Part shown: positions 9,601-19,793 of the stretch, piece after piece | Numbering within the stretch: position 1 is the stretch's first letter | Layout: each line of letters begins with the position of its first letter | IMG/VR virus record: IMGVR_UViG_2565956635_000009 | Coordinates: 1 to 25,288 of that record | Strand: one strand, 5' to 3' | Source of the DNA: a virus | Taxonomy: Duplodnaviria > Heunggongvirae > Uroviricota > Caudoviricetes | Length of the DNA: 25,288 nt | The notes under the pieces: model-generated | The model's database searches: none | What the model was told of the DNA's origin: nothing | The model's input: only the letters and a program-made list of their open reading frames with translations | Translations under genes and position numbers: made by a program

Positions 9601-9637
9601 TTGACATTTAACGCGCGAATTATTACCTTCCAGGTAA
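9601..9637 (+). promoter_or_regulatory. TTGACA hexamer plus palindromic operator-like site TTACCTTCCAGGTAA (9623..9637)
   Basis: Perfect -35-like TTGACA at 9601..9606; 15-bp palindrome of the TTACC-N5-GGTAA family 17 bp downstream; lies in the non-coding region upstream of the tRNA. No clear -10 element. Confidence 0.4.
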
Positions 9638-9959
9638 CTAAAGAGTTCATTCCGGTTACTAACCTGACTGGCTTGTCGTTAAATTGAACAGGTGGAGTGA
9701 GCTTTTATTTTGAGCAGTACGGCGTATGGCACATGCGACGATAGCGGTCTGGATACGTTTAAGGGGCACCCTCCCTTGCTCGGGCAAACGAACCAGGTAG
9801 CCGGAATGTGCAAGTCGAGCGGTTTTATTCCGCGCACGGGGATTCACCATCCCGGCGATTCGGTGTGACGCCTCGGAAGAGACGAGGGTACAACGATGAG
9901 AGCATTTATGGAGCCGCGACAAAGTGTGGCGCCTTAACAGGCTAAGTGCTCTCAGCGTT

Positions 9960-10036
9960 GTGGCATTAGCTCAGTTGGACAGAGCAACCGCCTTCTAAGC
10001 GGTTGGTCGCAGGTTCGAATCCTGCATGCCACGCCA
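9960..10036 (+). tRNA. tRNA-Arg, anticodon UCU (argU-like), phage-borne
   Basis: Cloverleaf folded by hand: acceptor stem GTGGCAT/ATGCCAC, D-arm GCTCAGTTGGACAGAGC, anticodon stem ACCGC/GCGGT with loop CTTCTAA (anticodon TCT at 9994..9996), T-arm GCAGGTTCGAATCCTGC, discriminator G, encoded CCA. Very close to my recollection of E. coli argU. Confidence 0.9.
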
Positions 10037-10079
10037 GAATCACGCCTAAGGACCGTGATGCCAGAAGTTCCAGGTGCTT

Positions 10080-10122
10080 GGCGGTGATAGTTTCCCTTGA
10101 AGGACTATCACCGCCCTTTTTA
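10080..10122 (+). terminator. Rho-independent terminator after the tRNA
   Basis: 12-bp stem GGCGGTGATAGT ... ACTATCACCGCC followed by CTTTTTA. Confidence 0.7.
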
Positions 10123-10199
10123 CAGCAGGACGCCATTGCGATGACTTCATGCTGTAAACCCGTACAGCCACGGAAGGCATAACTCATTGCTTCCAGTTC

Positions 10200-10223
10200 G
10201 CCCGGTTCGCCGGGCATTTTTTT
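10200..10223 (+). terminator. Second rho-independent terminator, just upstream of the moron promoter
   Basis: GCCCGG-TTCG-CCGGGC hairpin followed by ATTTTTTT. Confidence 0.65.
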
Positions 10224-10228
10224 GCTTG

Positions 10229-10257
10229 ATGACCGCAAATTACCTTAAAGGTATAAT
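10229..10257 (+). promoter_or_regulatory. Moron promoter (-35-like ATGACC, consensus -10 TATAAT at 10252..10257) overlapped by operator-like site TTACCTTAAAGGTAT (10240..10254)
   Basis: Perfect TATAAT with a 17-bp spacer from a 4/6 -35; the imperfect TTACC-N5-GGTAT palindrome overlaps the -10. Confidence 0.45.
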
Positions 10258-10258
10258 C

Positions 10259-11077
10259 ATGAAAAACTTCAAGGTAATTAGCATGTTTGAATCCTTCAAA
10301 GAGCTGTTTTTATCTACTGCCAATACTGCCGTGAATCGAGCCAAAAACCCTGTGCTTGGTGCTTTTGTTATGTCCTGGTGCGCCTTCAACTGGAAATCAA
10401 TTCTTTATCTATTTTTTAGCAAATCAAACATAATAGATAAAATTTCATATATCTCAGATAACAGCACATGGAAAACTGTTATGTTTTATCCATGCTTATC
10501 TGTAATTGCTATCTGCTGCCTATTACCATGGGTAAACAATATCATTAACGTATGGCAAGCAAAGCCTCTTGATAATAATGACTCAATCGATAATCACCTG
10601 AAGGCAAGAAAAATCCAGCGTGAAACCAGACTGCAGAGGTTATTGGCTAAAAAAGATGTTACATACGACAAAGTTAAGACTGGCGCGGAAAAAGACATCC
10701 AAGAGATGAAAGAAGAGATTATTCGATCAAAGAATAGTATGGGGGAATTGACTGCCGAGTTGAAAGCTAAAGATGACGAATTGAGATCCGCCAGTGCTCA
10801 GTTAGCAGCTCTAAATCATTCATTAAAAGAGATATCGGAAACTCTGGGAAGAATGAATGAGGCATATAAGACCCTCCAAAATGATTTCGACGAATACAAA
10901 CTCAAATACCCTGAAAAATCTCAAATAAAAAGTCTTGCACTTGGCAACGGCCAAACAATTAGCAACTTTTTGGAGCAACACAACTTATCCGGATTAAAAT
11001 CTGGTAAGCCAGACGTTTTTAATAACTTTGGTGTTCTATCTGGATTATCAGGTTTCGAGGATAAAAATAAAGACTAA
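10259..11077 (+). CDS. AT-rich moron protein: two predicted transmembrane segments plus long C-terminal coiled coil, unknown function (candidate exclusion/defence or conversion factor)
   Basis: ORF in the track; I prefer ATG 10259 (AAGG site) or ATG 10283 (AAGGT site; the only one downstream of the TATAAT) over the track start at 10187. Hydrophobic stretches PVLGAFVMSWCAFNWKSILYLFF and TVMFYPCLSVIAICCLLPW, then a Lys/Glu/Leu-rich heptad-like region. Visibly AT-rich compared with neighbours; 5 of 8 Arg codons are AGA/AGG; convergent with terL. Confidence 0.7.
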   Translation: MKNFKVISMFESFKELFLSTANTAVNRAKNPVLGAFVMSWCAFNWKSILYLFFSKSNIIDKISYISDNSTWKTVMFYPCLSVIAICCLLPWVNNIINVWQAKPLDNNDSIDNHLKARKIQRETRLQRLLAKKDVTYDKVKTGAEKDIQEMKEEIIRSKNSMGELTAELKAKDDELRSASAQLAALNHSLKEISETLGRMNEAYKTLQNDFDEYKLKYPEKSQIKSLALGNGQTISNFLEQHNLSGLKSGKPDVFNNFGVLSGLSGFEDKNKD

Positions 11078-18640: not shown

Positions 18641-18667
18641 ATATTAAAAGACCGCCGGATGGCGGTC
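18641..18667 (-). terminator. Rho-independent terminator just downstream of the Cro-like gene (tR1-like position)
   Basis: Minus-strand RNA: GACCGCC-AUCC-GGCGGUC hairpin followed by UUUUAAUAU. Confidence 0.55.
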
Positions 18668-18689
18668 TACAGAGGGTTGTGGCTGGATA

Positions 18690-18920
18690 TCATGAGTAGA
18701 AGAAGTATGCCAGTTCTGCTTTTGAGCGCAGCCATTGTCTTGTTTTACAGGCTTTAAAAAGCCCATTCATCAATACCTTACCTGGCATTTTGCGCTTACC
18801 TGTTAAGTGAGTCTGGATATAGTGACTCGTCGTTCCGGCTTCCTGTGCGAAGGCTTCACGCTCATCCGGAGTAAGTGCAAGCCAGTGCTTTTTGAAATCG
18901 AAATGTCCGTTATCGCTCAT
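18690..18920 (-). CDS. Cro-like early regulator (76 aa)
   Basis: Small basic protein transcribed divergently from the repressor gene, first gene of the rightward-early operon (cro, cII-position gene, O, P). Call is by position and size; no confident motif match. Confidence 0.5.
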   Translation of the reverse strand: MSDNGHFDFKKHWLALTPDEREAFAQEAGTTSHYIQTHLTGKRKMPGKVLMNGLFKACKTRQWLRSKAELAYFFYS

Positions 18921-18945
18921 AGCTATTGCCTGATATTTATTTCAG

Positions 18946-19019
18946 ATAATAAATATTCACCTATAAGGTAACAAAAATCAAGGATAGTTACCCATGAGGT
19001 GCATTTACCTGTTGGGTAA
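18946..19019. promoter_or_regulatory. Divergent immunity promoter/operator region (OR-like)
   Basis: Candidate rightward-early promoter on the minus strand (-35 TTGTTA 18974..18969, -10 TATTAT 18951..18946); operator-family sites TTACCCATGAGGTGC (18988..19002) and TTACCTGTTGGGTAA (19005..19019) plus a GGTAAC ... GTTACC pair at 18967..18992. Confidence 0.5.
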
Positions 19020-19074
19020 TATTGCTTTAAATTGAATCATCTTCTGATTCAGATATGAGGCGATTTTCCAGAAA

Positions 19075-19659
19075 ATGAAAAGTATCCAGGACGTCCGCAG
19101 GCAAAATCTCAACGACTTGATCGACCGTGAATTCAATGGTGTTCAGACGCGGATGGCTGAAAAACTTGGAACTCAGGCAAATCTGGTAAACCGCTGGGCT
19201 CTTGGCAAGAAGGTTATCGGCGACCAGGTTGCGCGAAAAATTGAAGCTGCCGCCAATAAACCCCGTAACTGGCTTGATATCGATCGCTCGCTTTCTCAGG
19301 AAGGTTTTCAGCCTGTCGGACCAAGCGACATTGGTCAACTGGCGGCTCACAACCTGGAACGCTGGATGAGCGAAAGCCGCGACCTTTCAACGCAGGGAAA
19401 ACTTCACCGCGCATCCGGCGTCGCCCAGGTAACAATCAGCCGCCTGTTAAACAATGAGGTCAGCGTTTCCATTTCCACCCTGGAGAATGTTGCATCCGCA
19501 TTTGGGCGTCACGGATATGAATTACTGATTCACCCGCACGACCCCGCGACTATCAACTATGACCGCTCGCGCTACGCATTGTTACCTGAAACAGAGAAGG
19601 CAAAGATCGAAAGTTACATTGAATTTGTCATCAACCAGAACGAAAAAAACAAACAATAA
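19075..19659 (+). CDS. CI-like repressor with two helix-turn-helix domains and no autopeptidase domain (194 aa)
   Basis: Two XRE-type segments (QTRMAEKLGTQANLVNRWALGKK and LHRASGVAQVTISRLLNNEVSVSISTLENVASAFG); no Ser-Lys dyad/S24-like C-terminal domain recognisable; divergent from the Cro-like gene and followed by a strong terminator. Confidence 0.75.
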   Translation: MKSIQDVRRQNLNDLIDREFNGVQTRMAEKLGTQANLVNRWALGKKVIGDQVARKIEAAANKPRNWLDIDRSLSQEGFQPVGPSDIGQLAAHNLERWMSESRDLSTQGKLHRASGVAQVTISRLLNNEVSVSISTLENVASAFGRHGYELLIHPHDPATINYDRSRYALLPETEKAKIESYIEFVINQNEKNKQ

Positions 19660-19679
19660 AATCATATTTTTCAGTAAAT

Positions 19680-19706
19680 AAGCCGCCTTATGGCGGCTTT
19701 TTTATT
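19680..19706 (+). terminator. Rho-independent terminator after the repressor gene
   Basis: AAGCCGCC-TTAT-GGCGGCTT hairpin followed by TTTTATT. Confidence 0.75.
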
Positions 19707-19716
19707 GCCTATTCGA

Positions 19717-19793
19717 TTACCTAACGGGTAATTTTTTTAACTCATATCTATTGACACCAAACCATATACGCATAATTATTACCTCAACGGTAA
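19717..19793 (+). promoter_or_regulatory. Early-left promoter with flanking operators (OL/PL-like)
   Basis: Consensus -35 TTGACA at 19751..19756 and -10-like CATAATTA at 19771..19778, flanked by palindromes TTACCTAACGGGTAA (19717..19731) and TTACCTCAACGGTAA (19779..19793), 62 bp apart. Confidence 0.6.

Follow-up and report, generated by a model that had tools for sequence, protein, structure and literature searches.

Dispersed copies of a 15-bp palindrome in a phiV10/ε15-like Escherichia coli prophage as probable operators of the immunity repressor Rep

The DNA analysed here, referred to below as the window, is a stretch of 25,288 nucleotides that is 97-98% identical to the E. coli Uetakevirus podophages vB_EcoP_PAS61, phiv142-3, TL-2011b, ZX5 and phiV10; by sequence it is an E. 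coli phiV10/ε15-like (Uetakevirus) prophage, a group related to Salmonella phage ε15. A near-identical prophage adjoins guaA in E. coli genomes. The element under study is a 15-bp palindrome, TTACC-N5-GGTAA, which recurs between the genes of this prophage and whose most probable reader is the immunity repressor Rep. The window is organised as follows (HTH, helix-turn-helix).
1-9532, minus strand: head and tail genes
11074-13139: terL-terS
13261-18920: early-right region, comprising the Cro-like gene, replication genes and an accessory cluster
18690-18920, minus strand: Cro-like gene, 76 aa, divergent from rep, phrog_35 'transcriptional repressor'
19075-19659, plus strand: Rep repressor gene, 194 aa, with an N-terminal CI-type HTH, a middle HTH_3 and a C-terminal tetramerisation region
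19813-24029, plus strand: early-left region
24032-25288: integrase

Seven exact copies of TTACC-N5-GGTAA are present in the window against 0.01 expected, and none of 100 dinucleotide shuffles reached seven; the excess over shuffled sequence that a preliminary description of this DNA had anticipated is thus present. When up to two mismatches were allowed, 26 matches were obtained against 7.0 expected, and a stricter rule, which retains an unbroken ACC-N5-GGT core and up to two mismatches, gave 13 against 0.77. Twelve of these 13 are the ten palindromes of the preliminary description, every one of which was recovered at its position, and two further sites that it had overlooked, at 13142 (TAACCACCCTGGTAA) and 18957 (TCACCTATAAGGTAA). 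The thirteenth, at 20302 (CTACCACGCCGGTGA), is coding and was rejected as being at chance level, as was a sequence within cro at 18796 (TTACCTGTTAAGTGA), in which the core is broken. The accepted set consists of seven exact and five near copies, i.e. 12 sites at eight locations over 10 kb of the window, and all 12 fall in the non-coding part, which makes up 6.8% of the window according to a gene model based on the open reading frame list and the annotation of close relatives (P ~7e-9 for the placement of the seven exact sites alone). All are symmetric and all are situated in promoter regions, with none inside a gene; for the sites at 13142 and 13160, this holds only if terS starts at 13139. 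The earlier proposal that the palindromes are intergenic and mark promoters or unit starts therefore stands, as does its extension beyond the OL and OR operators to terS and to the region of the tRNA gene and an accessory cassette.

Comparison of the copies widens the consensus to a 17-bp palindrome, (A/T)A-TTACC-N5-GGTAA-T(A/T), in which the two 5-bp half-sites are conserved and the N5 centre varies freely. The positions of the imperfect copies at 18620, 18957, 18988 and 13142 are conserved in four other genomes. The right half-site of downstream copies often coincides with or adjoins the ribosome-binding site of the first gene (16612-16626, 13142-13156 and 10240-10254), and because of this double use the leaders are very short, e.g. 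GAGGTAA-ATC-ATG at 16608. Neighbouring sites in six genomes lie at a few discrete distances: 62 bp occurs 11 times, 17-18 bp ten times and 30-31 bp six times.

The 62-bp spacing is represented in the window by two pairs of exact copies, 19717/19779 at the early-left promoter (PL) and 16674/16612 at the promoter of the mid-early cluster (P_mid), where the following features were assigned.
19680-19699, plus strand: intrinsic terminator after rep, insulating PL, with a tail that is conserved upstream of such modules
19717-19731: upstream PL copy, exact
19751-19779, plus strand: predicted promoter PL, TTGACA-17-AATTAT, the final T of the -10 being the first T of the downstream copy
19779-19793: downstream PL copy, exact, 62 bp from the upstream copy
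16674-16688: upstream mid-early copy, exact
16626-16654, minus strand: predicted promoter P_mid, TTGATT-17-TTTAAT, with PL-like geometry
16612-16626: downstream mid-early copy, exact, whose right half, GAGGTAA, is the ribosome-binding site of the DUF1064 gene (ATG 16608)

Both pairs share one layout, in which a first copy is followed after 19 nt by a CTATTGA(C/T) -35 sequence, a 17-nt spacer and a -10 hexamer that overlaps the second copy by its last T. This cassette (O-19-CTATTGA-17-(-10)-O, where O is a copy of the palindrome) was found in at least 120 viral contigs. Among 122 unique versions, strong conservation is restricted to the two palindromes, the -35 sequence and the tail of the upstream terminator, and CTATTGA is at least 90% conserved.

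The remaining early sites and those of the packaging operon are arranged around rep, cro, the replication genes and terS.
18957-18971: OR site a, one mismatch, in the core of the cro promoter, between or over TTGTTA-17-TATTAT (minus strand); position conserved in five genomes
18988-19002: OR site b, two mismatches here and exact in ε15 and BUCT711, 17 bp from site c
19005-19019: OR site c, exact
18649-18668, minus strand: intrinsic terminator after cro, annotated in phiV10
18620-18634: imperfect copy, nnACC-N5-GGTAA, 17 nt upstream of the replication-gene promoter; its ACC-N5-GGTAAT core is invariant in five genomes
18574-18602, minus strand: candidate promoter TTGATC-17-CAAAAT of the gp40, DnaT-like and P-like genes, both hexamers invariant in the alignment
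13194-13211, minus strand: intrinsic terminator closing the early-right operon
13174-13182, minus strand: candidate extended -10 of the packaging operon, TGTTACTAT, which appears as TGnTA(c/g)TAT in four lineages and 28 unique sequences
13160-13174: terS copy 1, exact, conserved in phiV10, Tyrion, ε15 and 28 unique sequences
13142-13156: terS copy 2, one mismatch, 18 bp from copy 1, overlapping the terS ribosome-binding site

The three OR sites lie between the ATG of cro (18920) and that of rep (19075) and are conserved in five genomes, with b and c forming a 17-bp tandem pair on the rep side. At terS, the order of terminator, TGTTACTAT, exact copy, 3 nt and one-mismatch copy is kept in phiV10, Tyrion, ε15 and the 28 unique sequences. 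Both terS copies are contained in the longest terS open reading frame, which begins with a TTG at 13220 and is used by PGAP-type annotations. The ATG at 13139 is preceded by a Shine-Dalgarno sequence, is the start in the ε15 and Tyrion records and leaves both copies upstream of the gene. We favour this start because of its ribosome-binding site, the agreement with ε15 and Tyrion, and the fact that the palindromes and the extended -10 then fall outside the gene; the 224-aa terS frame of several public annotations (12546-13220, minus strand) thus probably starts too early. Within the DnaT-like replication gene (17508-18323), two identical 20-bp units consisting of a hairpin and a T-run (TGGGATCATTCAACATCCCG TTTTTGGG) lie 24 bp apart at 17930-17973 (plus strand) and contain GATC; by analogy with λ O, they look like origin iterons inside an initiator gene.

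Is the palindrome a peculiarity of this prophage, or is it a property of the whole group? In phiV10, ε15, Enterobacter phage Tyrion and Klebsiella phage BUCT711, TTACC-N5-GGTAA occurs 8-11 times each, always between genes and in syntenic positions, and under the relaxed rule, complete relatives contain about 14-20 matches per genome, a few of which are coding and at chance level. The RefSeq record of ε15 carries seven features of the type 'protein_bind: repressor / lysogeny', which coincide base for base with motif matches; three of them are at PL, and the others precede terS, gp3, the tail-fibre gene and the mid-early genes. Alignments showed that the window sites at terS, gp3, PL and mid-early are syntenic with these annotated sites, and the window consensus is identical to the annotated features. 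The phiV10-type records carry no such repressor-site annotation, the ZX5 paper (PMC9782041) does not mention the motif, and literature searches for the motif and for Uetakevirus operators returned nothing relevant, a match in an EppR paper being a primer sequence only. The core idea is thus largely known, as it is already public for the type phage ε15, and the window represents a phiV10-type instance of an ε15-type Rep operator network. One further position was seen in relatives: an operator-like TTACC(T/C)TAAAGGTAT lies ~45-57 nt upstream of the integrase start codon (L002 26870, L003 26882, L004 28568 and L007 34979). In phiV10, this site has the same sequence as the copy at 10240 in the window, and ε15 and Tyrion differ from it at one spacer base; the window itself stops short of this position.

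These data raise the question of which protein reads the palindrome. Rep of the window is 100% identical to the repressors of phiV10, ZX5 and PAS61, its alignment is colinear with Rep of ε15, Tyrion and BUCT711, and it matches the structure of SPC32H Rep (PDB 5D50) over residues 1-190 with E=4e-42. Pfam detected only HTH families, namely HTH_3 at residues 106-147 and a weak YdaS/Cro-like match at 21-61, and no Peptidase_S24 domain. According to secondary sources (PMC9638917; PMC9986798), SPC32H Rep forms a tetramer, recognises palindromic sites by means of paired DNA-binding domains that come from different dimers, and is dismantled by the antirepressor Ant. In ZX5, whose Rep is identical to that of the window, overexpression of the repressor or the antirepressor shifts the balance between lytic and lysogenic growth (PMC9782041).

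Rep identity falls to about 42-44% across the four lineages, with the N-terminal domain as the best-conserved part and the segment NLVNRW…G.K.IG invariant. Among the Rep proteins of 98 viral contigs with the exact operator pair, 52 distinct sequences of 40-100% identity occur, and all of them keep NLV(N/S)RW or NLINRW. A protein-homologue search with the N-terminal domain retrieved close fragments only, and tblastn of this domain against phage genomes revealed a relationship of 33-42% identity to classical CI N-terminal domains. In most of these phages, the cI-cro region contains a palindrome of the same build:
SfV and Hafnia yong2: GTACC-N5-GGTAC
Psychrobacter pOW20-A: ATACC-N5-GGTAT
Pseudomonas PseuP_224: TTACC-N4-GGTAA
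H-19B: TTTAYC-N5-GATAAA
In phiE125, the sequence found in the cI-cro region is unrelated. Palindromes of one build with lineage-specific outer bases, next to related CI proteins, tie the motif type to the family of the Rep N-terminal domain.

Homology, enrichment, synteny and covariation together point to Rep as the binder. We consider it highly probable that the palindromes are operators of Rep, and the Cro-like protein probably uses them as well. The preliminary description, which had named the repressor with its two HTH regions as the simplest candidate, is supported on this point. That the motif is a real regulatory one, and that its first description was correct in outline, is strongly supported.

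The mechanism that we propose on this basis is as follows. By homology with SPC32H Rep, a Rep tetramer would present two pairs of N-terminal HTH domains, each of which would read one palindrome of 15-17 bp, (A)TTACC-N5-GGTAA(T), whose half-sites are separated by one helical turn. Since there are two HTH pairs per tetramer, one tetramer could hold two operators, either as a tandem pair (17-18 bp; OR b/c and terS) or as a split pair (62 bp; PL and mid-early). In a split pair, the downstream operator would extend from the last base of the -10 over +1, and the upstream operator would end 19 nt before the -35, so that bound Rep would occlude the -10/+1 region of its promoters. The bridging of a pair by one tetramer, the promoter assignments and the transcription start positions are all inferred. 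Because each unit is preceded by a terminator, its expression should depend on its own Rep-controlled promoter. In a lysogen, Rep would thereby silence cro, PL, the replication genes, the mid-early cluster, terS-terL, the tRNA unit and one accessory cassette together, and inactivation of Rep would release all of these units at once. As Rep has no autocleavage domain, induction in the relatives is expected to proceed through the antirepressor; the ant region lies outside the window and, in relatives, is found between the structural genes and the tail-fibre gene.

The two remaining sites, at 9623 and 10240, lie between the head genes and terL.
9550-9581, minus strand: late-type promoter box CATATGTGGTTAAATTGGTAATAATTTAAT upstream of gp3 (ATG 9532), without operator overlap; at least 90% conserved over 24 nt in 20 unique sequences
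9601-9629, plus strand: candidate promoter TTGACA-17-TACCTT directed toward tRNA-Arg, its -10 lying within the operator
9623-9637: exact operator between the gp3/head unit and the tRNA unit, homologous to ε15 2931-2947, which is annotated 'repressor'
9960-10036, plus strand: tRNA-Arg(UCU), downstream of the TTGACA promoter and followed by two terminators, 10080-10115 and 10200-10215
10229-10257, plus strand: predicted promoter of the cassette, ATGACC-17-TATAAT (strong), serving the phrog_4780 gene (probable start ATG 10283)
10240-10254: operator-like site, one mismatch, overlapping the spacer and the -10 of the cassette promoter

For the tRNA unit, a promoter scan had proposed TAGACA-18-AATTAT at 9594-9623, which was set aside in favour of TTGACA (9601-9606), because conservation is limited to this hexamer and its distance to the operator: TTGACA and the 16 nt that separate it from the 9623 operator are invariant in five genomes and 20 unique sequences. 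From its position downstream of this presumably Rep-controlled promoter at 9601, tRNA-Arg(UCU) is predicted to be expressed in the lytic phase and not in the lysogen. Homology to sequenced phages ends at 10223, and the cassette region extends over 10224-11077 (plus strand). The phrog_4780 gene encodes a protein of ~264 aa. Its cassette was counted in 56 of 5426 complete E. coli genomes, where it usually occupies the same slot beside terL; phiV10 and PAS61 have a different gene in this slot and no operator. The 10240 site is unaltered in a 92%-identical copy of the cassette in which the flanking bases differ.

The head-gene unit is organised differently. Its late-type box, CATATGTGGTT…TAAT, lacks a -35, and the 9623 operator lies ~40 nt upstream of it, overlapping the -10 of the divergent TTGACA promoter; the 24-28-nt stretch between this operator and the gp3 start codon (CATATGTGGTTAAATTGGTAATAATTTAA) is conserved more than the adjoining coding sequence. 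In complete relatives, related CATATnTGGTT-N10-TAnAAT boxes, also without a -35, precede the tail-fibre and lysis genes, again with an operator 29-41 nt upstream of the late box and facing a divergent unit. These late units probably need another factor. A strict composite pattern of the late box matched tail-fibre promoters only, and the box is kept here as a side observation. The sequence TTAAATT-GGTAAT-AATTTAA (9553-9572), just before the ribosome-binding site of gp3, is a perfect AT-only inverted repeat that is present once per genome and unchanged in all five; a protein might bind it, or it could form a hairpin in the 5' untranslated region.

A second element, C(A/T)TATnTGGTT, recurs in this DNA and is also contained in the late box; it makes up the right half of a loose palindrome of 14 bp, AACCATATATGGTT. 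Three copies, all on the minus strand, are present in the window against 0.2 expected (9550-9581, 16632-16642 and 18603-18616). PL and P_mid carry the element in their spacers, and it recurs at the promoter of the replication genes. A factor that switches transcription from early to late may bind it. The last gene of the early-right region (13261-13599, minus strand) encodes a gp49-like regulator of 112 aa that is basic at its N-terminus and rich in Cys at its C-terminus (CxxC…C…C). Its conservation across lineages is 71-79%, its only annotation is 'transcriptional regulator' (phrog_536), and a Pfam search gave no match; since its gene lies immediately before the packaging operon, it is a candidate late regulator.

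How far do these observations allow Rep to be regarded as the regulator of the whole prophage? The claim that one protein 'directly gates every operon' is only partly supported: it agrees with the layout at PL, the mid-early cluster, P_cro, P_terS, the tRNA unit and the 10240 cassette, where an operator overlaps the -10/+1 region, but not with that of the head-gene unit from gp3/portal onward, which has its own late-type box that no operator overlaps. Several points weigh against assigning the palindromes to Rep-mediated occlusion throughout. At the gp3 unit, the operator is ~40 nt upstream of the late box and centred near -80, which makes direct occlusion unlikely there. The -10 hexamers of PL (AATTAT) and of the tRNA promoter (TACCTT) match the consensus weakly, and for a single tetramer to bridge a 62-bp pair, the DNA would have to form a very tight loop. 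Through the 10240 site, an accessory gene would be repressed in the lysogen; if the host benefits from that gene, this would be surprising. Finally, some sites could be read mainly by the Cro-like protein, whose conservation is equally good.

A broader reading, to which we give a minor share of belief, is a two-layer map of the genome, in which the Rep operators are combined with a so far undescribed second layer, the late-promoter core (AACCA)TATnTGGTT of the gp3/head, tail-fibre and lysis units. One phage factor acting on the second element could turn early promoters off and late promoters on, as p4 of φ29 does, and the gp49-like Cys-rich regulator (13261-13599) and a PerC-like protein (22431-22730) are candidates for this role. 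On such a map, Rep operators that precede late boxes would belong to the divergent units, or would work by means of a Rep tetramer that bridges to a second site. Separately, the constancy of the operator over Rep proteins of 40-100% identity and over four host genera would imply genus-wide cross-immunity, unlike the situation in lambdoid phages.

Another important question is whether the sites belong to Rep at all. The 76-aa Cro-like protein could be their main or sole reader and act in lytic-phase shut-off, with Rep working only at OR or through another sequence. Its putative HTH segment, AGTTSHYIQ.HLT, is invariant in four lineages, it is annotated as a transcriptional repressor in PHROG, its gene adjoins the OR sites, and in the λ paradigm, Cro and CI use common operators. 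The covariation described above, however, concerns the Rep N-terminal family, with CI homologues lying beside nTACC-N5-GGTAn palindromes; the ε15 record attributes the sites to the repressor; and the paired spacing suits a tetramer that holds two palindromes. Exclusive reading by the Cro-like protein is less likely than sharing of the sites by both proteins, and we regard it as improbable.

Still less credit is due to the idea that another regulator, either an enterobacterial host factor or a gp49-like, AlpA-like or PerC-like phage protein, reads the sites and that their proximity to rep is coincidental. The motif is constant in phages of four host genera even though Rep drops to ~42% identity, and the gp49-like protein is 71-79% conserved, but the recognition segment of Rep is conserved too, and an enterobacterial host factor would hardly account for the occurrence of CI N-terminal homologues beside the same palindrome type in phages of Pseudomonas and Psychrobacter. 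Several sites resemble the MqsA-type palindrome, ACCT-N3-AGGT; only some copies fit, the T required for ACCT being present in only 8 of 14 half-sites. Host NarL 7-2-7 sites have the wrong spacing. The view that the palindromes are no operators at all, but module-exchange junctions or linkers, or DNA or RNA hairpins for termination or processing, can almost be dismissed: the sites do lie at module borders (homology to other phages ends at 10223, beside 10240) and often follow terminators, but a stem of 5 bp is too weak to have an effect, the constant register relative to -35 and -10 would be left unexplained, and conservation of the half-sites alone around a free N5 is the signature of a dimeric protein site rather than of a hairpin or recombination tract.

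With Rep as the preferred reader, the map has several consequences. This prophage family is common in E. coli, Salmonella, Klebsiella and Enterobacter, and the map indicates which of its promoters would be silenced in the lysogen; it predicts that the accessory genes, i.e. tRNA-Arg and the phrog_4780 cassette, are expressed in the lytic phase and not in the lysogen. The cassette of terminator, operator, promoter and operator, with its fixed 62-bp geometry in at least 120 contigs, is a ready-made design for a tightly repressible promoter and a natural test case for promoter clamping by a tetrameric repressor with two operators. The biology is not new in kind, since the ε15 record marks the sites and the Rep/Ant pair has already been studied structurally. 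Novelty of the non-lambdoid logic seen in the preliminary description is accordingly not supported, and repressors with dispersed operators are a known class (PMC1934351). The present analysis adds the 62-bp clamp cassette and its breadth, the covariation with CI N-terminal domains, the constancy of specificity across a deep radiation of Rep, and the separation of Rep-occluded promoters from the late-box class.

The closest known system is the Rep/Ant module of ε15, SPC32H and SPN1S (Uetakevirus), with which the window shares a homologous Rep without a peptidase domain, an identical operator consensus and syntenic sites at terS, gp3, PL, OR, after cro and mid-early. It differs from ε15 in that its Rep belongs to the sequence class of E. 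coli phiV10 and in having two PL sites instead of three; which OR copy is imperfect varies by lineage, and unlike other sequenced phages, the window has an extra site on the cassette.

The lambdoid CI/Cro systems (λ, H-19B and SfV) have in common with the window a divergent repressor/cro pair with a three-part operator between the genes, and palindromic sites that are read by a dimeric HTH head; the N-terminal domain of Rep shares 33-34% identity with those of H-19B and SfV CI, whose operators are of the same nTACC-N5-GGTAn type. In contrast to lambdoid CI, Rep has no S24 autocleavage domain and, by homology with SPC32H, would act as a tetramer instead of a dimer of dimers, and its operators are also located on packaging, mid-early, replication, tRNA and cassette promoters. 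While lambdoid phages rely on N/Q antitermination, the units of the window are separated by terminators, each with a repressible promoter of its own (no search for a Q homologue was made).

P1 C1 is a repressor with dispersed operators. The window resembles P1 C1 and gp71 of mycobacteriophages L5 and L1 in that one repressor has many sites across the genome and many units would be silenced together. Binding to multiple operators is attributed to the repressors of mycobacteriophages and of 'some other phages' in PMC1934351. The operators of P1 C1 and L5 gp71 are, however, asymmetric and their proteins unrelated to Rep, whereas the sites of the window are symmetric. Moreover, the 'stoperators' of L5 lie within transcription units and are orientation-dependent roadblocks, whereas the sites described here are located in promoter regions.

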